Below, piece after piece: positions 7,185-17,093 of a DNA stretch of 64,000 nucleotides. Source of the DNA: an uncultured Candidatus Bathyarchaeia archaeon. Its GTDB lineage: Archaea; Thermoproteota; Bathyarchaeia; Bathyarchaeales; DTEX01. The stretch spans positions 15,249 to 79,248 of the forward strand of contig CAZELO010000009.1 of the NCBI GenBank assembly GCA_964513245.1, read 5' to 3'. Within the stretch, counting starts at the first letter, position 1, and the number at the start of each line of letters is the position of its first letter. The notes below the pieces were generated by a model. The model made no database searches, was not told the DNA's origin, and was given only the letters and a program-made list of their open reading frames with translations. The translations under genes were made by a program, and so were the position numbers.

Positions 7185-7574
7185 CTAAGCAACGGTGACC
7201 CTGACAACTTCGATGCCTCTTATGACCCTAAGCCTCTCAGCAAACTCTTTTATCCTTGCGATGTCTCCTCTTGTGAGGATAACTTCAAGGCAGGACCCAC
7301 GCATATGATTGTGCAAGGTGGTTGAAATAATATCCTCATACTTGTGTTGCAGTCGGCTAATCTCTTCAAACATGCCTCTTCTATCAATGTTAAAGGTTAT
7401 GGTAACCACGGCCAATGCTGTTCCTGTCAACCTCGACGACCACTCAGCTTCACTGAACAAGGTTCTTAGGGCCTCTCGCACAATCTCTGAACGACTGGCG
7501 TATTGCTTCTCTTTAGCCATTCCATCGAGCTTTACTATCATCTCGTTCGGAAGCGATACATTGATTGTACCCAT
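7185..7574 (-). CDS. nikR: NikR-family nickel-responsive regulator (RHH + C-terminal metal-binding domain)
   Basis: N-terminal RHH (TINVSLPNEMIVKLD...SRSEIVREALR) and HxH...C motif (TLHNHMRGSC); start moved to internal Met. Confidence 0.65.
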   Translation of the reverse strand: MGTINVSLPNEMIVKLDGMAKEKQYASRSEIVREALRTLFSEAEWSSRLTGTALAVVTITFNIDRRGMFEEISRLQHKYEDIISTTLHNHMRGSCLEVILTRGDIARIKEFAERLRVIRGIEVVRVTVA

Positions 7575-7778
7575 GCATAACCCTCTAGGACAATTACTAT
7601 CTAACATCAATGATGCTTATCTACTCATCCCGTTCTTTTACTCGAACAACATGTTGCCATAGTATCGTATAGCTAAAATCTAGCATCGTGGCTTACTATT
7701 ACGAGGTCTTAACCGACAACACGCTAGAAACAGACCAGCAAAATGGAGCCCAAATGTATCGAAATAGAGGAAGGATAG

Positions 7779-8813
7779 ATGCTCGAAATAGATGGAAGCC
7801 AGAAGAGCGGAAGCGGAACCATTCTGCGCATGGCAGTCGCCCTATCCGCGATAGTGGGTAGTCCACTGCACATATGCAACATTCGAAAGAAACGTGACCA
7901 GTCCGGGCTCAAGCCGCAACACCTAGAAGCCGTGCTTACAGCCGCAAAACTTTGCGACGCAGAGATAAAAGGCGCAACACTAGGCTCGCAGGAGCTTTGG
8001 TTTACGCCCAGCCAGATAAAGGGCGGCGAGATGCACGCGGAAATCGGGACAGCCGGCAGCATACCGATGCTGGTCATGACTGTTCTGCCCATATGCGCCT
8101 TTGCGGAGCAGCCTGTGATCCTGCACATAACGCGGGGTGGAACCGACGTCCGACATTCGCCGACGACGAATTATCTTGCCCATGTCCTTCTGCCGATGCT
8201 GAACCGCATGGGGTTGGATGCCTCGATAACCGTCCACAAGTACGGGTATTACCCGAAGGGCATGGGCGAAGCCACATTGAGGGTTCAACCGTGCAGGGGG
8301 CTTAAGCCGCTCGTGTTGAAGGAGTTCGGCAAGGTCACAAATGTGGGCGGAATCTCCACATGTACCTTTTTGGCGGACAGAAGGGTGGCTGAACGTCAGG
8401 CGCGAGAAGCTGAAAGGCTTTTGAGACAAAGAGGCTTCGAACCCAGCATCAGAATAGTCAACGACTTCTCCAATCCCCTTCAGAAGGGAAGCTCCCTCGT
8501 CCTCTGGGCTGAAACGGACACAGGTGCGCTGCTTGGCGGAGACGCGATTGGCGAAATCGGCAAGCCGAGTGAGGCTGTGGCACAAGAGGCTACGAGAAAT
8601 CTTCTCGCTGAGATCGATGCCATGGCTACGGCGGACGTTCACCTTGCAGATCTGCTGGTGCCGTATGTGGCACTTGCCCGAGGCGGATCTGTTTATTTGG
8701 CGCGGCAGGTTACGGATCACGTTGAAGCAAATATTTGGCTTGCATCTGAGATTTTAGGCGTCAGTTTCAGAGTTGAAAAGAAGGGTGCACTATATCAGAT
8801 TGCCAAAACGTAG
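7779..8813 (+). CDS. rtcA: RNA 3'-terminal phosphate cyclase
   Basis: EIDGSQKSGSGTILRMAVALSAI N-terminus and overall RtcA-like length. Confidence 0.85.
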   Translation: MLEIDGSQKSGSGTILRMAVALSAIVGSPLHICNIRKKRDQSGLKPQHLEAVLTAAKLCDAEIKGATLGSQELWFTPSQIKGGEMHAEIGTAGSIPMLVMTVLPICAFAEQPVILHITRGGTDVRHSPTTNYLAHVLLPMLNRMGLDASITVHKYGYYPKGMGEATLRVQPCRGLKPLVLKEFGKVTNVGGISTCTFLADRRVAERQAREAERLLRQRGFEPSIRIVNDFSNPLQKGSSLVLWAETDTGALLGGDAIGEIGKPSEAVAQEATRNLLAEIDAMATADVHLADLLVPYVALARGGSVYLARQVTDHVEANIWLASEILGVSFRVEKKGALYQIAKT

Positions 8814-9075
8814 GCATCGGAACTGCAGGAATTTCACGGTCAAAGCCAGAGTAGAAAGGGGAGCCTGCTCTACAGCGCTCGTGCAACTGGTTGGTATTAT
8901 GGGCTTCACGATAGTCCATTTTTCCAGTCAACTCGGATACCTATGACAGGTCGGATAAACTGGTTGCCGATGGCTGTATCTCCAGCAAGATGCGCCTGAT
9001 TTTTGAGGAAATTTTGAATTTTTTGAGCCTAGAGACCGAGAAAGACGAAAAAATAGGCTGCAAGATGCTTCATAG

Positions 9076-9129
9076 GGGTTCTGTTACCTCTTCGGTTGAT
9101 ATGTAATGCTGTTACTTTTCGGTTGATAA
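9076..9129. repeat. left terminal inverted repeat of IS6-family element
   Basis: gggttctgttacctcttcggttgatatgtaatgctgttacttttcggttgataa; exact reverse complement at 12075-12128. Confidence 0.8.
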
Positions 9130-9216
9130 ATACAATTTCTAGCTACATATTCCGAGTTCATAAAACATAACAAAGAACCATAAGATAAATAAAAAGGAGC
9201 ATAGCATTAACTAGCT

Positions 9217-9549
9217 ATGATTTGGCCAAAAACAAAGGCTGCTCTATGGAGATATACGCCTCGTGGAATCAAGGTATTCCTCAAAAAGACCACTTGGTAT
9301 GATCATATTTGTCGTGGTCATGTAGAGATGAATAATTCATTGGAGGATGTGATAAGAGCATTAGAGAGACCTGAAGCAACCCATGCCTTCAAAAGAGATA
9401 GATTTAGCTACTGCTATTCTCAACGGAGAGGAAGCTTTATAATGTTAGTTTACAAGGTAAGTGGAAGATTGGGATGGGTGAAAACGGCATACATGGTACA
9501 AAACCCTTATGTAGAAGTAGAAGGCTATAATAGAGTGTGGCCAATATGA
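9217..9549 (+). CDS. hypothetical small protein, possible toxin-like partner (DUF4258-like) of downstream DUF2283 gene
   Basis: 13-bp overlap with next ORF in a TA-like arrangement; no strong motif. Confidence 0.3.
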   Translation: MIWPKTKAALWRYTPRGIKVFLKKTTWYDHICRGHVEMNNSLEDVIRALERPEATHAFKRDRFSYCYSQRRGSFIMLVYKVSGRLGWVKTAYMVQNPYVEVEGYNRVWPI

Positions 9550-9830
9550 GTGAAATAATAGATGTGGCTACAAATGTTTTTCATGCGATAAAACCAGACT
9601 CTGAAATAACTATAGATTACGATGAGGAAGCAGATGTCCTGTATATCAATTACCATAATAGCCCTCTTCAGAAAGCAGATTTTGGAAGAAGATTCGGTGA
9701 CTATATTGTTAGAATAAGACAAACATTAGTGATTGGTGTCACAATCATTAATGCCTCACTTCATTTGAAGAAGAGTTTTTCAGATAAACCATCAATACTT
9801 ACCGAACCATTTACTCTTCGGATTGCCTAA
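9537..9830 (+). CDS. DUF2283-family small protein (antitoxin-like)
   Basis: ITIDYDEEADVLYI ... GVTIINAS matches the DUF2283 pattern. Confidence 0.5.
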   Translation: MANMSEIIDVATNVFHAIKPDSEITIDYDEEADVLYINYHNSPLQKADFGRRFGDYIVRIRQTLVIGVTIINASLHLKKSFSDKPSILTEPFTLRIA

Positions 9831-10948
9831 CTGCCTTTTTTGGCATTCTGAATTAGCGTTATCCATTTGTTTTCTCCTTTAATTTCAACTCCGCAGGCTT
9901 CGGAAGGCGTCTTTCCCTTCAAGGCTTCATGCGGTCTTACAAAATTATGGTATATTTGATAACCTTTTAGAATTGGTGTATCTTTCGTCTTCAATCCTCT
10001 CATAACTTTTTCTCTGTCTCTGATTTCTCCGTTTAGTCTTTCCATTTTGTTGTTGTTTTTGTCTCCTCTGATGTGGATGTGTGCGATGTGTTGTGTTCTC
10101 GGAGCTTTCAACGTCCAAAACTCTTTCTTGTATGCGTCATGATAGGCGGGTAATCCATCTGTGATTATTGTTTTAGGGCTTTTGCCCATGAGTTCTTTGC
10201 CCATTTTGAAGAGTTTTCTTGCGTCATGCTTGTATTTGGATTCTGCGACTTCTTGAGCTATCCAATATCGTGTTTCGTCATCCATTAGGGCGAAGACGTA
10301 CTTCATGTCTCCGTTGATTTTAACCCATAATTCGTCGGCTCTCCAAGTGTCTGAAACATCGATTTTCAGTTTCATCACATATTCTTCCATCAGTCGGATG
10401 TACTTCTTAATCCACATGTAAACCGTCTTGTGAGAGATTTTTACTCCTAACAGTCTAAGCGATTTCTGAGTGTTCCTTAATGATTCTCCGCTGAAATACA
10501 GTTGCATGGCTGTCGTTACTGCTTGCGGGTTATGCTTCATCTTCTCAAAGCCAATATTCACGCTGAATGTCTTTCCGCAATTATCACATATGAAACGTTG
10601 AATGTCTCCACTTTTGTTTCTTCTAATCCCGAACTTCTTTATGTTATCTGAATCACAGAACACACATCTACAAACATCCGTTATCGGCTCTATCTTCCTT
10701 GACTCAACTTCTCTTCTCAACCTTTCGGAGAACTCAACAGCCCAAATATGCTTACACTTCACGCCACGATAAATATGATCTGGGCAAGAACACAGCCATC
10801 CAACCTCAGAATTGATGACTTCATATTCTCCGCCGTTTGATTGTGATTTAACCTTGTAGCAACGATTGTCTGTTCTTTCGATGTGGTTCAGCTTCGCTAT
10901 TTCAAGACCTTTCTGTTCACGGATGTTGGCGGTTATCTGTGTTGCCAT
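9827..10948 (-). CDS. IS6-family DDE transposase with N-terminal SWIM-type zinc finger
   Basis: WRADELWVKINGDMKYVFALMDDETRYW, ITDGLPAY, NNNKMERLNGEIRDREKV, YHNFVRPHEAL; CSCPDH...CKH zinc finger. Confidence 0.8.
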   Translation of the reverse strand: MATQITANIREQKGLEIAKLNHIERTDNRCYKVKSQSNGGEYEVINSEVGWLCSCPDHIYRGVKCKHIWAVEFSERLRREVESRKIEPITDVCRCVFCDSDNIKKFGIRRNKSGDIQRFICDNCGKTFSVNIGFEKMKHNPQAVTTAMQLYFSGESLRNTQKSLRLLGVKISHKTVYMWIKKYIRLMEEYVMKLKIDVSDTWRADELWVKINGDMKYVFALMDDETRYWIAQEVAESKYKHDARKLFKMGKELMGKSPKTIITDGLPAYHDAYKKEFWTLKAPRTQHIAHIHIRGDKNNNKMERLNGEIRDREKVMRGLKTKDTPILKGYQIYHNFVRPHEALKGKTPSEACGVEIKGENKWITLIQNAKKGS

Positions 10949-10950
10949 TT

Positions 10951-11049
10951 TAGGTACCTATTATATAGTTAGGTACCTAACAATATAAACCTTTCGGTAC
11001 CTAAAATTTATAAGGAAGCATTCCCAATATCGTAGTAGGTGCCTAAATG
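10951..11049. promoter_or_regulatory. array of four GGTRCCTAA boxes (two perfect 10-bp TAGGTACCTA palindromes) between transposase and AbrB-like gene
   Basis: Copies at 10951, 10969, 10995, 11036; TTATATA TATA-like elements interspersed. Confidence 0.45.
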
Positions 11050-11211
11050 AAACTTCAAAAACAACTTTCAAGAAGAGTGGATGACAGAGAGTATCCCAAA
11101 TACGTTGTAACCATTCCACCCAAACAGATCGAAGAGGTTGGATGGAAAGAAGGTACTGAACTGGAAGCAACAGTTAAAGATGGAAGAATAATACTAAAGC
11201 CAAAAGATTAG
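11047..11211 (+). CDS. AbrB/SpoVT (swapped-hairpin) domain small protein, 54 aa, absent from ORF track
   Basis: Own translation: MKLQKQLSRRVDDREYPKYVVTIPPKQIEEVGWKEGTELEATVKDGRIILKPKD. Confidence 0.45.
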   Translation: MKLQKQLSRRVDDREYPKYVVTIPPKQIEEVGWKEGTELEATVKDGRIILKPKD

Positions 11212-12065
11212 ATTCTGAATTGCCCCTCTATGAACAATCTATCAAAATCAGAAACCTTTGAGCCAACTTCATTAATAAACCGATTAACATCTTCAACAGG
11301 CAATTCTGTTATTGGATACTTGATATTGTGCATGTCATTAACCATTTTCTTACGTTCTTCTTCTGTTTTAAGAGTATTCCAACTATCTGGAAACATCACA
11401 TTTGGAAGATAATACACTTGAGGCAAAAAGTCGGTACGATAACCTACACTAGTGTCAATATCTGTATCTTGAATTAACTTTATAATGAATAGAGCCAATT
11501 TTGCTGTTTGCTCCATAGTCATCTTTTCATTCCACATTTTTTTGATGAACAAAGCACCGTAAGGTCGGCCGTGCCCTATTACTTTAATCTTGTTTACTGG
11601 TTCAGGAAGACCGAGACCAGTGAAGTTCACCAATTCAGGTATTATATTAACTCTTATAGCCATCAAGACATTAAGATAACCTACTAAAAAATGCCTATCT
11701 TGTTCGTAAATCTTGTGCATTTCTCTTATTACATTCTCAGCTATTGTTTTTAGTTTTTCATGGTCATTTAAATTAATTTTTTTAGCTTCTTGATCCCTAA
11801 CTGAAACTGTCATTCTGTTTTGAAATGAACTGAACAAGCCACTTGCTCCAGATGCACCCATAACCACAGAAGTAAAAGGTCTGAACAATTTTTTTCCATA
11901 CTCATTAGTACCTTCATCAACGGTAATTTTCGTATCCCCTACTAAAACTACCCCATCAACACACTTCGCACCCAAGATAAATGTCATATCTTTCTTCACC
12001 AATCTGAGCAATTTATGGTCTATTAGGTACCTATTGTATTCTTCCCCATATAAAACATTTTTCAT
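11208..12065 (-). CDS. proteasome-like Ntn hydrolase (HslV/Anbu/beta-subunit-like), cargo of IS element
   Basis: M-TFILGAKCVDGVVLVGD-TKIT (Thr1, Asp17, Lys near 33) and GASGASG; 26-aa leader or alternative start at 11987. Confidence 0.5.
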   Translation of the reverse strand: MKNVLYGEEYNRYLIDHKLLRLVKKDMTFILGAKCVDGVVLVGDTKITVDEGTNEYGKKLFRPFTSVVMGASGASGLFSSFQNRMTVSVRDQEAKKINLNDHEKLKTIAENVIREMHKIYEQDRHFLVGYLNVLMAIRVNIIPELVNFTGLGLPEPVNKIKVIGHGRPYGALFIKKMWNEKMTMEQTAKLALFIIKLIQDTDIDTSVGYRTDFLPQVYYLPNVMFPDSWNTLKTEEERKKMVNDMHNIKYPITELPVEDVNRFINEVGSKVSDFDRLFIEGQFRI

Positions 12066-12074
12066 AGAATCACC

Positions 12075-12128
12075 TTATCAACCGAAAAGTAACAGCATTA
12101 CATATCAACCGAAGAGGTAACAGAACCC
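12075..12128. repeat. right terminal inverted repeat of IS6-family element
   Basis: Exact reverse complement of 9076-9129. Confidence 0.8.
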
Positions 12129-12185
12129 TTCACAGTAAAGGTTAAATAGCCTCTTTCGGCTTTAGTAAAATCTCGGTGGAGAAGT

Positions 12186-13154
12186 ATGAGCATGCTTAAA
12201 CTGAAGATGTCGATGCTCGGCACATTAGCGGCCATAATAGGTATATCGACTCTTTTCTTAACAATCGTACTTGTCCTGATGGAATCATTCAGCCTAGTCA
12301 CACTAGGCGTGCTGATAGTCGCCTTCAACGTTGCCCAGTGGCTCTTCGCGCCTTACTTGGTAGATACAATGTACCGTGTCCGCAAAGTTTCTAGGTCAGA
12401 GGAGCCGGAGCTCACAAGTATGGTAGAACGCCTGAGCCAAAAAAGTGGAATAAAGACGCCGGAAGTGAGGATAGCTAGAATCCCTCTGCCGAATGCCTTC
12501 GCCTACGGCTCGCCGCTTACAGGAAACCGTGTCGCTGTGACAACCGGGCTTCTGAACACATTGGATTCCGAGGAAGTTGAGGCTGTGATCGGGCATGAAC
12601 TGGGTCACCTGAAGCATCGCGATGTCCAAGTGATGATGTTTGTCTCAATTCTGCCAGCTCTGTTCTACTATCTAGGTTACTCGTTAATGTGGTCCGGCGC
12701 CTACAGTAGACGGGATGACCGCGGAAACGGCAGCCTCATGGCACTGATCGGGATGTTAGGCATGGTCGTGTACGTCGTGCTGACTCTGTTCACGCTTTAC
12801 CTGAGCCGCCTGAGAGAGTACTTTGCTGATAGACACAGCGCCGCAGTTGTGGACGACGGCGCCCACAAACTGCAAGAGGGATTGGTCAAAATAGTCTATG
12901 CAACGGAGGGCATGCGGAGGTCCAATCGCCCTACAAGCAACGTAAGTTCGCTCAAAACCCTGTTCATATCCGACCCCGACAGAGCAGGAAAAGATGCGAG
13001 AATGCTTGCCCGTGCAGGCATCGGAAAGAACGACCGACAACTCGTTATTGAGCAAATGAACCGCCAGGTCACTTCGGGAGCCCTATTCCAAGAAGTCTTA
13101 TCGACACATCCAAATATAATCAAGCGGCTGAGAGCCTTAGAAGAACTAGCATAG
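12186..13154 (+). CDS. htpX: HtpX-like M48 zinc metalloprotease
   Basis: HELGHLKHRD zinc motif, N-terminal TM helices. Confidence 0.8.
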   Translation: MSMLKLKMSMLGTLAAIIGISTLFLTIVLVLMESFSLVTLGVLIVAFNVAQWLFAPYLVDTMYRVRKVSRSEEPELTSMVERLSQKSGIKTPEVRIARIPLPNAFAYGSPLTGNRVAVTTGLLNTLDSEEVEAVIGHELGHLKHRDVQVMMFVSILPALFYYLGYSLMWSGAYSRRDDRGNGSLMALIGMLGMVVYVVLTLFTLYLSRLREYFADRHSAAVVDDGAHKLQEGLVKIVYATEGMRRSNRPTSNVSSLKTLFISDPDRAGKDARMLARAGIGKNDRQLVIEQMNRQVTSGALFQEVLSTHPNIIKRLRALEELA

Positions 13155-13827: not shown

Positions 13828-14357
13828 ATGAGTCTTTCCTTCACGACTGAAAGTATGTCTCCGGGCTTGATGACCGAGATGCCTGTTAAGCCGCCTAAGA
13901 CCTCCACTAAGACAATTTTGTCAGGTTTGTCTAGGTTCACCTTCCGCTCTATGTTTCCAGCCACCGCGTCGATTATGGCTTTCATCGAAAGTTCAGTGTG
14001 CCTCTTCTCAACAGTTACGCGGAAGATTTCGCCCTCCAATATTTTCTGAGACAGGTTCATGCTTGCTGTGTTTATTTCCGCGAGGTTCGTTCGGACCACT
14101 ACCTCGATCGGTGCCACCTTAAGCGTATAGCGGAACTCTTCCGGGCGTTCTTCTAGGATTCGCCTCAATCCCTCGACTGCCTCGAAGGGGTCCAGAACTG
14201 TTTTCGCAACAACTAGACCCAGAATTTCTGTCTTTTCCACTGTGGCGTCGCGGTCTCCGAGTTCTCCGAGAAGGAACCAGATTTCTGCGCACGCCTTGTT
14301 TTCTAATCTTCGCGGGCTCGAAACCAACAGATTGAAATCATCGATCAACGGAGCCAT
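13824..14357 (-). CDS. THUMP-domain protein (Tan1-like, putative tRNA modification)
   Basis: Size and N-terminal pattern (AEIWFLLGELGD) typical of small archaeal THUMP proteins. Confidence 0.4.
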   Translation of the reverse strand: MAPLIDDFNLLVSSPRRLENKACAEIWFLLGELGDRDATVEKTEILGLVVAKTVLDPFEAVEGLRRILEERPEEFRYTLKVAPIEVVVRTNLAEINTASMNLSQKILEGEIFRVTVEKRHTELSMKAIIDAVAGNIERKVNLDKPDKIVLVEVLGGLTGISVIKPGDILSVVKERLI

Positions 14358-14404
14358 TTTTGACGCCTCAAAACATCACAGCCGGTCCAAAAAAGGATAG
14401 CGGA

Positions 14405-15067
14405 TCAAACAAGCCTTTTTTGATGGCTTTCAGTTTTTCCTTCAAACCTCTTCGCTGGCTTCCAAGACCTTCGAACAAACTCGGGGTAAACCCTATGCGT
14501 GTCCATCCACTCCTTCAGGAAGTTAACTGTCTTCGGATCCGAAACGTAGCCTGACCCGAAGTCTCCATATCTTTGTCTCAGTTCGGCGATCACGCTGTCG
14601 CGTTCAACCTTGGCTAGGATCGATGCGGCAGACACCACGGGGTATGTCTTGTCTGCCTTGTGCTCTGACACTATCTTGACCTCAAAGGGAACCTCTTGGG
14701 CGATGTGTTGCCCGAAACGTTCCGCCAACACGTCTGAAGCATCAACGTAGGCGATGTCAGGCTTCAAGTTCCGTATGACCTCCGCCATGGCTCGCGCTTC
14801 AAGCCTGTTCAGCCGGTTAAGCTTCGTGCCTGTCTCGACCACCCTGTCGATTTCTGCGGGGGACAGATGCACAATGCTGTGTTTTTTGACGATTTCGAGG
14901 ATCTCTTCTCTGAGATGCTCTCTTCTTCTCGGTGAAAGGAGCTTAGAGTCCTTCACGCCTAGGCTTGCAAGTTCAGAAAGAGAATCTTCGTCGACGAGCA
15001 CGCCGGCTATGACAAGCGGACCTATGACGGGTCCTCGCCCGGCGTCGTCAATTCCAGCTATCAGCAT
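14405..15067 (-). CDS. rnhB: ribonuclease HII
   Basis: MLIAGIDDAGRGPVIGPLVIAGV; start at internal Met because the longer ORF overlaps pyrI. Confidence 0.8.
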   Translation of the reverse strand: MLIAGIDDAGRGPVIGPLVIAGVLVDEDSLSELASLGVKDSKLLSPRRREHLREEILEIVKKHSIVHLSPAEIDRVVETGTKLNRLNRLEARAMAEVIRNLKPDIAYVDASDVLAERFGQHIAQEVPFEVKIVSEHKADKTYPVVSAASILAKVERDSVIAELRQRYGDFGSGYVSDPKTVNFLKEWMDTHRVYPEFVRRSWKPAKRFEGKTESHQKRLV

Positions 15068-15207
15068 CTTCGTGTCCTCGCTATTCAAAGGCGGCTTCGA
15101 ATGTGATAACCTTTGCCTCAGCCCTTTAACTGTCTTCAGCAGAACTGCCATTTTTACGATGTCTAGACGCCCGGTCAAGAAAGATTGGGCGTTTGAACTT
15201 TTTTCTT

Positions 15208-15684
15208 TCAGAATTGTTTGAGTATGTCCTCTTTCTCCATGATGTGTCCGCAGTAGTGGCACCTGAGCCTCAACGGCTCTTCATTCTCGACGTAGAATAT
15301 GGGTTTGACGGGTTCCCTCTCGCTGTTGGATATGCACGGGGGATTTGCACACTTGACCGTGCCGTGTATTATCGATGGCAGCTTGACCCTCTGTTTCTCC
15401 GTTACCTTGAAGCTGCGGATAATGTTTATCGTGGCATGGGGCGATATGAGGGCTATCTTGTCAACCTCCTGCGAGGCGAGTTCTCTGCCCTCTACCTTGA
15501 TCACGTCTTTGACCGCGATCTTTCCGCTGGGAACGTTCATGGCGATCGTGACAACGCCGCCTTGGTGTCCGTCTATGCCGAGAAGCTTCACAACGTCTAG
15601 GGCATGTCCTCTCGTAATGTGGTCTATGACCGTGCCATCTCTGATCTTCGAAACCTTCAAAGTCTGCTTAGACACACACACCAC
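15208..15684 (-). CDS. pyrI: aspartate carbamoyltransferase regulatory subunit
   Basis: KIRDGTVIDHI N-domain and C-terminal 4-Cys zinc domain (CANPPC...CHYCGH). Confidence 0.8.
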   Translation of the reverse strand: MVCVSKQTLKVSKIRDGTVIDHITRGHALDVVKLLGIDGHQGGVVTIAMNVPSGKIAVKDVIKVEGRELASQEVDKIALISPHATINIIRSFKVTEKQRVKLPSIIHGTVKCANPPCISNSEREPVKPIFYVENEEPLRLRCHYCGHIMEKEDILKQF

Positions 15685-15920
15685 CGCACAAACCTAAACT
15701 ATCAAACCCAACAAATATATAACTATCCACTGCCCACCAAGTAAGCCCAATATACACAAGCCATCCAATGCCCCTAAATTGTATCAAAAGACTAGGAAGA
15801 GTCCTGAATCAATCTTCCACCCTACAAGCCCTCTGCCTAAGAATCACTAGATTACACATCGCCAAATGCTCGGCAACAAGAAAAATATTTAGCGATAATG
15901 AAATTAACTTTAGATATGCA

Positions 15921-16418
15921 ATGAAAGCCGATGATGTTGATCATAAGAGGAAGCATACAATGAAAGAGGAAGAGGTCATTTTTTATGTCAAAAGGTTCTT
16001 TGAGAAACAAAACTATCGTGTTCAAAAAGAGGTTTCCATTCATGGCTACAGAGTAGATATATTAGCGGAGAAGGCAGATGAAAAGTATTTGGTTGAGTGC
16101 AAGTCAGATGAGTATCTCAGATCACATGAAATACACGTTATGATTGGACAATTGGTTTCCGAGATGCACCAGGTAGGTTCTCAACTGCATTATGGTCTTG
16201 CGATGCCGTTTTCACTTTCAACTTACTTAGGAGAATTTGGTATCGGGGGCATCAATGCACTAAGATTGCATCTATTTGTCGTGGGACAAGGAGATATATG
16301 GAATGGGGAAGTCTTTTATCTAGACACGGAAAGCCTGCTCAGTTATATCAAAGACCTTAGAAAAAATCCTGACACTGCCTGGGCAACTCTTATTACCTTA
16401 GGGAAAAAACTGAATTAA
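15921..16418 (+). CDS. PD-(D/E)xK nuclease-fold hypothetical protein
   Basis: GYRVDILAEK...YLVECKS gives D...ExK catalytic signature; AT-rich context. Confidence 0.35.
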   Translation: MKADDVDHKRKHTMKEEEVIFYVKRFFEKQNYRVQKEVSIHGYRVDILAEKADEKYLVECKSDEYLRSHEIHVMIGQLVSEMHQVGSQLHYGLAMPFSLSTYLGEFGIGGINALRLHLFVVGQGDIWNGEVFYLDTESLLSYIKDLRKNPDTAWATLITLGKKLN

Positions 16419-16592
16419 GTTACTATTAAGCATATTCATATAGATAATGGGAATTTTCTCATTCTAGAAAACCTGGTAACTGGAATATCTAACTAGAAAA
16501 CATGGCACTTAATTCTTTCGACAGACGAAAGTCCCATATTTGAGTGTTACGAATCTTTCGACAGCCTATTGTACTTCATTTTCATTGGTTCT

Positions 16593-17093
16593 TTAGGGAT
16601 AGATGTACAGTCTGGTTGAGCGAGAGAAGGTGCCTTGCTGAATCATGACAACCCTCTTGTTTTCCGTTTCCCATCGGACAATAAGAATCAATCTTAAAAG
16701 AAAATAAGCGAATAGCCCCGCGAAGAGGAAAGAGACTTCGCCATATACAAAAGCTGGACTTAGCGCACGAAAGAGAAAATGAAAAAGTAGAAAAGCCAGA
16801 ATCCCAGCTGTACCTGCATATATAATCGCACGGTTCCCTATTGTGAATTCTCCTTTTCTTTTTAAAACTTTTAATTCTCCTTGAGTGACTATCGTTCCTG
16901 CAATTATACCCGAGCCTAGCCCGAAAATGATGAAGCAAACAACAAGAGCTATCGAAGACGGATTAACCGGGTTTAAGGTTACGATTTGACGAAACAGTAG
17001 TACGTCGCCAAAGAACAAAAAAGCCAAAGAAAGGAGACCAAAACCAGTATTGGTCGTTTCCTTCTCCACTATAGCCGCTCTCCTCGCGAGCAA
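16593..17093 (-). CDS. hypothetical membrane protein
   Basis: Multiple hydrophobic helices; AT-rich. Confidence 0.3.
   Translation of the reverse strand: MLARRAAIVEKETTNTGFGLLSLAFLFFGDVLLFRQIVTLNPVNPSSIALVVCFIIFGLGSGIIAGTIVTQGELKVLKRKGEFTIGNRAIIYAGTAGILAFLLFHFLFRALSPAFVYGEVSFLFAGLFAYFLLRLILIVRWETENKRVVMIQQGTFSRSTRLYIYP

Follow-up and report, generated by a model that had tools for sequence, protein, structure and literature searches.

Insertion sequences (IS) of the IS6 type are known as minimal elements with a single gene, which move other genes as pairs flanking a segment. The 2021 review of the family gives inverted repeats (IRs) of 15-20 bp and just one passenger-carrying member, ISDsp3 (Varani et al., PMC7986276). 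In the same review, zinc-finger extensions of the transposase are found just in the bacterial clades h and i, mostly from Clostridia, with no SWIM finger mentioned, and the archaeal IS6 elements covered belong to Halobacteria, Thermococcales, Methanococcales and Sulfolobales (PMC7986276). The subject of this text is a 3-kb block in a stretch of 64,000 nucleotides from an uncultured Candidatus Bathyarchaeia archaeon (contig CAZELO010000009.1, positions 15,249 to 79,248). This whole stretch is called the window below, and all positions refer to it. The block, at 9077-12127, is very probably a 3051-bp unit transposon (a 'transporter IS') whose transposase is a distant, zinc-finger-extended relative of the IS6 transposases, and a member of a large archaeal family.

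In a 2019 survey of mobile elements in thaumarchaea, IS are taken to be elements of one or two genes, and passenger-carrying transposons are given as not detected in archaea (PMC6563490). A paper on Atabeyarchaeia lists five 'IS-like transposons' (PMC11529989). The 'aloposons' of Heimdallarchaeia, cited in that same paper, are similar to the present family in having an archaeal host and cargo, which is a likeness by description only. No published description of this family of archaeal cargo transposons was found in the literature searched, with ISfinder outside that search.

What the block shares with the IS6 family (IS26, IS257/IS431, IS6100, IS240) is a DDE domain of the IS240/IS6 type, with the D..D..E plus K/R spacing, as well as tips of the form GG-cTGTt. 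A target duplication of 8 bp, as in IS6, is perfect in relatives and matches at 7 of 8 positions in the window. Unlike the IS6 family, with its 0.7-0.9 kb and its IRs of 15-20 bp, the element here measures 3 kb (0.8-6.3 kb in relatives) and has ends of 50-60 nt with two sites each. The transposase has some 130 extra N-terminal residues, containing a SWIM finger and a four-cysteine ribbon. There is also a small, divergent regulator gene, cargo is the rule, and the insertions are found beside the TATA boxes of predicted promoters.

Clades h and i of the IS6 family also have an N-terminal CxxC zinc-finger extension on an IS6 core. These are bacterial elements of 1.2-1.8 kb, however. ISDsp3 from Dehalococcoides is likewise of the IS6 type and has a passenger between its IRs. 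It is known as one bacterial copy, and its passenger is a single hypothetical gene. The present elements form a whole archaeal clade, and their cargo, diverse and often of the defence type, lies to either side of the transposase gene.

What emerges is an IS6-type core in a new, cargo-carrying and apparently promoter-homing format. The same catalytic core would here drive self-contained multi-gene transposons, with two-site ends, a regulator of their own and exchangeable cargo on both sides, which are abundant in uncultured archaea. In archaea, the family would then be an important and so far overlooked carrier of genes for defence and restriction-modification.

A repeat search of the window finds a perfect IR with arms at 9076-9129 and 12075-12128, each 54 nt long and 100% complementary, with 2945 nt in between. 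An earlier, sequence-only reading of this DNA had described the same repeats. It had also called the block AT-rich, and the GC profile agrees, with values of 0.34-0.41 inside (37% overall) against 0.50-0.57 in the flanks, in a genome of roughly 52% GC. No other 2-kb bin of the window has a GC content as low. When 25 nt of the repeat arm are searched for in the 64 kb, they occur exactly twice, versus 0 times in 100 shuffles, and the repeats are not a common genomic one.

Although the arms are 54 nt long, the functional end in relatives is by rule 53 nt, which puts the ends at 9077-9129 and 12075-12127. The 54th pair, G9076/C12128, is probably due to an extra G that happens to be complementary to the base with which the target duplication begins. 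The repeat measures 54 and not 53 nt because this G pairs with the C that starts the right duplication.

Five open reading frames (ORFs) fill the 3051 bp, the transposase gene and four others, where the norm for IS6 is a compact transposase-only element of about 0.7-1.8 kb. That IS6 elements normally encode only the transposase, as the sequence-only reading put it, agrees with the one passenger-carrying member on record (PMC7986276).

The transposase gene (9827-10948, minus strand) encodes a protein of 373 amino acids (aa). It scores 61.3 bits against PF13610 (DDE_Tnp_IS240), with a cut-off of 27, and 22 bits against SWIM, with a cut-off of 19.6. The SWIM finger consists of C53, C55, C65 and H67, the four-cysteine zinc ribbon of C95, C98, C121 and C124, and the DDE core of D205, D264, E303 and R310. 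The SWIM ligands, the CxxC pairs and the four core residues are invariant or nearly so across 28 homologues, and the window copy has kept all of them. An IS1/IS1595-type zinc domain is matched at residues 95-129. The NCBIfam IS6 model NF033587 is matched over its full length (profile 1-202 of 202) by residues 134-338, with an E-value of 6e-33.

In a tblastn search of PLSDB, all best annotated matches are named 'IS6 family transposase'. They include Clostridium IS6 and ISCpe7-type transposases, and begin around residue 91-137 of the query, which leaves the SWIM part uncovered. Relatives are publicly annotated just as 'DDE-type integrase/transposase/recombinase'. Homologues of the transposase fill more than 5000 protein clusters, all the named ones archaeal, and among them is a protein (P0001) identical to that of the window, although an exact look-up of the sequence gave no record. 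Judged by its sequence, the transposase is a distant, N-terminally extended relative of IS6, and not a standard family member.

The ends have an anatomy of their own. The left terminal IR (9077-9129, plus strand) opens with the tip GGTTC (9077-9081), followed by an outer site TGTTACCTCTTCGGTTGAT (9082-9100), a spacer of 9 nt (9101-9109) and an inner site TGTTACTTTTCGGTTGAT (9110-9127). The right terminal IR (12075-12127, minus strand) reads the same from the other side, with the inner site at 12077-12094, the spacer at 12095-12103, the outer site at 12104-12122 and the tip at 12123-12127. Each end is in effect two copies of a 19-nt site, TGTTAC(C)TYTTCGGTTGAT, and this accounts for the length of the repeat.

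Both ends carry the IS6-type tip GGTTCTGTT, with the GG and cTGTt of the published motif (PMC7986276), and the earlier observation that the outer bases match IS6-family ends is correct. With their 53-54 nt and two sites, the ends are not the short 15-20 bp IRs of IS6. The tip GGTTCTGTT is of the IS257 type, and GGCACTGTT, the tip of the closest relative (L084), is of the IS26 type.

Among relatives, 63 ends show the two-site layout again. In 47 of them the inner site begins at nt 33 or 34, and in 13 at nt 43 or 45, which is roughly one helical turn further in. The last 7 nt of the site vary from element to element: GGTTGAT in the window, and GTCGGAT, GTCTGTT, GGGAGAT, GGGTCAT and so on elsewhere. 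These heptamers covary among the four sites of any one element. Outer and inner heptamers within one end differ at 1.0 positions, against 3.2 between elements. Elements with the same heptamer have transposases that are 66% identical, versus about 58% otherwise, a weak relation (rho -0.24) between pairs that are not independent. The 19-nt sites are putative cognate binding sites for the transposase, two per end.

A scan with the transposase, using one genome per species, delivered 79 loci. They come from Bathyarchaeia, Nitrososphaeria, Methanoperedens, Methanocellaceae and Thermoplasmata, and from a chromosome of Atabeyarchaeia (Asgard). In a first pass, ends of the GGTTCTG type were sought on either side of the transposase gene, which delimited 33 units of 2031-5923 bp. 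In 29 of these 33, a perfect 8-bp direct repeat adjoins both tips. A second search was anchored solely on an 8-bp direct repeat beside GG-tipped inverted ends. This gave 42 units of 781-6267 bp with perfect 8-bp duplications, including L002, where the right end lies at 9014. Relatives with transposases that are 53-85% identical are bounded by the same GGTTCTG(T) tips.

The closest relative, L084 (5816-8171), has a transposase that is 85% identical, and measures 2356 bp with the perfect duplication AACAATAG on both sides. It contains the trio of proteasome-like, AbrB-like and transposase genes, and its right end comes directly after the stop codon of the transposase gene. Another relative, L095, is 4290 bp long, also with a perfect duplication, and has a methylase and a specificity subunit (restriction-modification) as cargo. 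Since the relatives are flanked by perfect 8-bp duplications, the multi-gene units appear to transpose whole, cargo included, where transposition itself is inferred from sequence.

The sequence-only reading had taken the whole 3-kb block to be one mobile unit, a transporter-IS with genes inside the IRs, and the variable cargo found inside perfect duplications in relatives bears this out. It had also pointed to related genomes as the place to look for further copies with 8-bp duplications, and this is where the 29 and the 42 units were found. For the protein P0110, the 17 contigs it is on all have the same insertion site, in different samples, and no recent jumps were seen by this route.

Some units are very short. 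L020 664-1122 (459 bp), L067 5954-6734 (781 bp) and L045 3821-4946 (1126 bp) have family-type ends and perfect duplications and no complete transposase gene, and are likely non-autonomous derivatives. Full-length family transposases, 65-67% identical, are also present on two contigs from IMG/VR that are classified as viral there (L085 and L086), and in L086 there is a unit of 2584 bp with a perfect duplication. Genes of the TnpB/IS605 type lie near the L084 element (9082-10311 and 14144-15164), in a neighbourhood rich in mobile elements.

It was earlier stated that no clean 8-bp target duplication is visible. A near-perfect one is present. The left copy CTTCATAG (9068-9075) is followed by an extra G (9076) before the GGTTCTG tip, and the right copy CTTCACAG (12128-12135) adjoins the CAGAACC tip, as it does in relatives. 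The two copies match at 7 of 8 positions, with the extra G on the left accounting for the offset of one base. By our own arithmetic, a 7/8 match arises by chance at about 4e-4 per register. The ends could also be read as GGG tips with a 7-bp duplication TTCAYAG. This is less likely, as relatives uniformly have GG tips and 8 bp. At this locus the empty site is expected to read ...GCAAGATGCTTCAYAGTAAAGGTTAAATA.

Most insertions have the same layout around them. Outward from one end of most units there is the 8-bp duplication, then 5-7 nt that are often A-rich, then a TATA-like box, and then an outward host ORF, which in most cases starts some 40-75 nt from the duplication. The window insertion is built in this way. 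CTTCACAG is followed by TAAAGG, by TTAAATA (12142-12148) and by the htpX ATG at 12186, so the insertion sits 6 nt upstream of the TATA-like box.

A strict TATA pattern is present at +5 to +7 in 17 of 31 sites, versus 0.95% of 260,865 background positions (binomial 9e-27), where the background includes coding DNA, which inflates the contrast and makes the P value generous. The TATA offsets show a sharp peak at 5, 6 and 7, and further sites have degenerate boxes at +5. The fixed spacing, and not the P value, is the real argument for targeting.

Tandem members of the family are stacked head to tail, exactly 8 bp apart. There are 14 junctions that consist of a right end, 8 bp and a left end, and any other spacing from 0 to 40 is seen at most twice. 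In L020, GTGAAGGA is found five times between successive elements (at 656, 1123, 4799, 7807 and 10396). In L075, CTATTTCT occurs three times (1960, 5867 and 9894), as does CCTGCCTG in L045 (3813, 4947 and 7170). The members of the L020 array are not the same element: their transposases share 60% and 54% identity with the query and, at the nucleotide level, 64% with one another, and the array includes the 459-bp derivative. The arrays of L020 and L045 terminate at a TATA box.

A single model would account for both the spacing and the arrays. Insertion would take place at a set distance upstream of a promoter core, made up of the TFB recognition element (BRE) and the TATA box. The promoter-side copy of the duplication would then stay a perfect target, and later arrivals would insert between the resident element and the promoter. 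In this homing reading, the same 8-bp site is hit repeatedly because the promoter stays intact. An incoming transposase that recognises the tip of a resident element was also considered as the cause of the arrays, and was dropped, since the promoter-distance model fits the same data and the single insertions too.

We lean cautiously towards a wider version of this, in which an archaea-wide clade homes to sites just upstream of the BRE/TATA core (via the DNA or via bound TBP/TFB), stacks into arrays, and ferries defence-type genes between archaeal phyla.

Homing to a landmark is not new. Ty3 targets the start sites of RNA polymerase III via TFIIIB (TBP plus Brf1), and Tn7 targets attTn7. As would be the case here, these elements keep a set distance from their landmark and leave it intact on insertion, which makes for a reusable and 'safe' site. 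There is no homology with either of them, and no dedicated target-selector protein was identified in the present family. Tn7 also has target immunity, where the present elements stack in tandem. If the targeting is real, it would be a counterpart of Ty3 targeting TFIIIB, and to our knowledge the first case of a prokaryotic transposon homing to the basal promoter. It would then offer a handle on archaeal promoter recognition, and possibly a tool for promoter-proximal insertion.

Other explanations are available for much of this. It could be that a short, standard IS6 element sits inside a genomic island, with outer 54-nt repeats that have nothing to do with it, being either genomic repeats or attachment-type ones that belong to an integrated piece of a plasmid or virus. 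Described IS6 elements are after all 0.7-1.8 kb long, with IRs of 15-20 bp and, bar one, no passengers (PMC7986276), and the element is single-copy in the window. However, matches of the GGTTCTGTTAC type in the 64 kb are just the two outer ends, with none adjoining the transposase gene, so the inner repeats that the sequence-only reading had feared are not there in the window copy. Perfect 8-bp duplications adjoin the outer ends of multi-gene units in relatives, the end sites covary within an element (and weakly with the transposase), and family scans of the block's proteins turn up no integrase, replication or virion genes. This explanation has next to no chance of being right. A better case can be made for a true family member that has lost its mobility, a relic fixed in the chromosome and retained because of its cargo or of an effect on htpX expression. 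The imperfect duplication (7/8 plus one extra base), the one copy in 64 kb and the presence of the family member L095 at one fixed site across many samples would all fit. A relic is nevertheless rather unlikely, given ends that are identical over 53 nt, a full-length transposase ORF with all invariant catalytic and zinc residues in place, a GC content still far from that of the host, and ORFs that are all intact, whereas L012 has a split proteasome-like gene. How a unit transposon of this sort would move is a separate matter. Transposase molecules would bind the outer and inner sites at both ends and pair these ends, after which the 3' ends would be joined to target DNA that is cut with a stagger of 8 bp. 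If homology with IS26-type elements is a guide, the route would be copy-in cointegrate formation, followed by resolution. Cut-and-paste transposition, or a circular intermediate, is a possible if doubtful alternative. It would go well with three features that are atypical of IS26-type elements (PMC7986276), namely the paired sites in each end, the regulator gene and the long N-terminal extension, and also with the predominance of simple insertions with perfect duplications and the short non-autonomous derivatives (459 bp in L020, 781 bp in L067). Set against this, the catalytic core matches the IS6 profile over its full length, the tips resemble those of IS6 and so does the 8-bp duplication, and resolution of cointegrates also yields simple insertions. 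Excision footprints and circle junctions were not seen, with no search aimed at them.

The position next to TATA boxes might finally be the work of selection, with insertions that are random and just the harmless ones, in AT-rich intergenic DNA, surviving. IS elements in general do survive mainly in intergenic DNA, and the coding sequence in the background inflates the TATA contrast. Yet selection does not predict a fixed spacing of 5-7 nt, nor that as many as four or five distinct elements should use one and the same 8-bp site (L020, L075, L045), nor 14 end/8-bp/end junctions against at most 2 for other spacings of 0-40. It is quite improbable as the explanation. The unit transposon with promoter homing also has its weak spots, and these should be counted against it. 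The score for NF033587 is 114.2 bits, below the curated cut-off of 125, and identity to the PLSDB matches is at most 32%, over the DDE part only, with no match covering at least 80% of the query. Of the 'unmistakable IS6-type DDE transposase with a SWIM zinc finger' claimed earlier, the DDE core and the SWIM finger stand, both above their Pfam cut-offs, in a protein that is a distant relative of IS6. There is only one copy of the element in the 64-kb window, its duplication has one substitution and one extra G, and there is no empty site that can be compared at the DNA level, the nearest HtpX homologue being just 73% identical. The case for mobility of the window copy is made by comparison with the family. 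DNA binding by the transposase, and by the AbrB-like protein described below, is presumed from sequence, and the promoters of both element and host are predicted ones. The copy-in route of IS26 is an extrapolation, since the IS6 elements on record lack a regulator gene and have single IRs of 15-20 bp (PMC7986276). Of the 31 sites, 17 and not all have the strict TATA pattern, and some of these sites are possibly orthologous (L030/L064, L008/L009).

The gene next to that of the transposase (11047-11211, plus strand) encodes 54 aa, predicted to be a small DNA-binding protein of the AbrB/SpoVT/MazE type. It scores 38.2 bits against PF04014 (cut-off 24.7) and 28.3 against TIGR01439, precisely at the cut-off of 28.3. 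The sequence-only reading counted this gene as a passenger. In 30 of 33 relatives, however, there is a small ORF (48-106 aa) divergent from the transposase gene and just upstream of it, so the AbrB-like gene occupies a family-wide regulator slot instead. A scan of 27 slot ORFs found 7 of the AbrB/MazE type and 3 zinc ribbons, with isolated matches to families of the ribbon-helix-helix fold, among them Omega repressor, RHH_6 and HicB. As far as sequence goes, the regulator slot is a conserved position and not a conserved fold.

Between the transposase and AbrB-like genes lies a divergent control region (10950-11045). It has the palindrome AGGTACCT at 10952-10959 and at 10971-10978, both within the 98-nt gap between these genes, and two variants of it, GGTACCTA (10996-11003) and AGGTGCCTA (11037-11045), with TATA-like runs in between. 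A third AGGTACCT is found at 12025-12032, where it directly follows a TATA-like run and precedes codon M27 in the proteasome-like gene, which therefore shares this candidate operator motif with the promoters of the regulator and the transposase. The three occurrences are the only ones in 64 kb, all within the element, versus 0.32 expected. The motif positions are kept in L084, L010, L012 and L001. The 54-aa protein would probably repress three promoters via the palindrome TAGGTACCTA, which are its own, that of the transposase gene and that of the proteasome-like gene.

With the AbrB-like gene assigned to the regulator slot, the four passenger genes counted earlier come down to the two-ORF pair and the proteasome-like gene, which are inside the unit as described. 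The pair starts with an ORF of 110 aa (9217-9549, plus strand), for which Pfam, NCBIfam, PHROGs and PADLOC give no match. The second ORF has 97 aa (9537-9830, plus strand), or 94 aa from the ATG at 9546. This ATG overlaps the upstream TGA as ATGA, making an overlapping two-gene pair. The second protein resembles Pfam DUF2283 (E 9e-4, 19.8 bits, below the cut-off of 23) and might be an antitoxin-like partner.

The sequence-only reading called this a toxin-antitoxin-like pair. The overlapping arrangement is there, and the family evidence is just the weak, sub-threshold DUF2283 match, next to an unmatched partner. The cassette is possibly toxin-antitoxin-like, the type II pairs of the DUF4258/DUF2283 type being the comparison. 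It is missing from the closest relative L084. Scans of the five element proteins with PADLOC and PHROGs gave no defence or phage assignment.

The proteasome-like protein (11208-12065, minus strand; 285 aa) matches the Pfam Proteasome family PF00227 with an E-value of 1e-12. Its real start is likely M27 (11985-11987), which would expose Thr28. The residues T28, D44 and K59 are invariant in every homologue and correspond to Thr1/Asp17/Lys33 of proteasome beta subunits. An AlphaFold model has a predicted local distance difference test (pLDDT) score of 87, and the top PDB matches found by Foldseek are 20S proteasome subunits and Anbu, with TM-scores of at most 0.85 normalised to the target. From sequence and model, this is a predicted proteasome/Ntn-hydrolase fold with an intact Thr/Asp/Lys triad, as in 20S beta subunits, HslV and Anbu. 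The proteasome-like hydrolase named earlier is thereby well supported as a family member, while its role as a hydrolase is a predicted one. That it could be an anti-repressor protease, in the manner of ImmA/ImmR, is pure speculation by analogy.

Just 49 homologues of this protein were found, and a subclade of the elements has it in common. Those at least 70% identical are part of the same trio with AbrB-like and transposase genes (L089, L090, L091), and ones that are 43-49% identical occur without the transposase (L092 in Methanolobus, and L093). A metagenome scan with the proteasome-like protein found nothing. When the window copy is compared with L084, identity is 85% for the transposases but just 38% for the proteasome-like proteins, and the two AbrB-like proteins belong to the same 90% cluster. 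The elements are therefore mosaic.

Across the family the cargo is variable, and largely consists of restriction-modification, toxin and other defence-type genes. It includes components of Type I, IIG and III restriction-modification systems, GmrSD and Mrr nucleases, ParB-like proteins, MazF, a TIR effector domain, DUF3800 and GNAT acetyltransferases. Cargo rich in defence genes is also a feature of Tn7-like elements (PMC8649781). A 2025 survey of CRISPR-Cas systems reports no CRISPR-cas loci in 23 complete Bathyarchaeota genomes.

The cargo 3' of the transposase gene varies in close relatives as well. L089 has a weak match to PycTM (Pycsar effector-like) at 7424-7918, and L090 a weak HicB-like antitoxin match at 7992-8372. 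In the window, this same slot contains the DUF2283-like pair.

Exact look-ups of the flanking genes found just short-read contigs from the same organism. These two Logan contigs of SRR14802573 (L080 and L081) stop about 30 nt inside each terminal repeat, at around 9105 and 12099 of the window. This is probably an assembly break due to the 54-nt IR, and is uninformative on copy number. The window has a second low-GC stretch at 15600-17000 (0.38-0.41), where the ORFs resemble membrane or hypothetical proteins by appearance. Neither a transposase homologue nor family-type ends were found in it.

The genes that flank the element are rtcA (7779-8813) and that of an M48/HtpX protease (12186-13154). 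The closest named homologues of HtpX are from Bathyarchaeia, with at most 73% identity, which points to a Bathyarchaeia-like host. The predicted host promoter of htpX is at 12136-12188 (plus strand), with the spacer TAAAGG in the position of the BRE, the TATA-like TTAAATA and the htpX ATG.

In a relative (L082) the gene order is RtcA-DUF402-HtpX, with an intact DUF402 gene of 361 aa between rtcA and htpX. This gives the setting of the insertion, though L082 is no true empty site. The left flank in the window, at about 8945-9066, translates to ...EILNFLSLETEKDEK..., which resembles the C-terminus of the L082 protein (...EILDSLSLNAERDNL...). A tblastn match of this flank to DUF402 alone has an E-value of 1.5, which is not significant. 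Compared to L082, some 900 bp of the DUF402 region are missing in the window, and the frame is interrupted by stop codons. Positions 8945-9066 are probably a C-terminal remnant of DUF402. If this remnant is real, the element sits right before the predicted htpX promoter, within the final codons of a DUF402 gene that has decayed.

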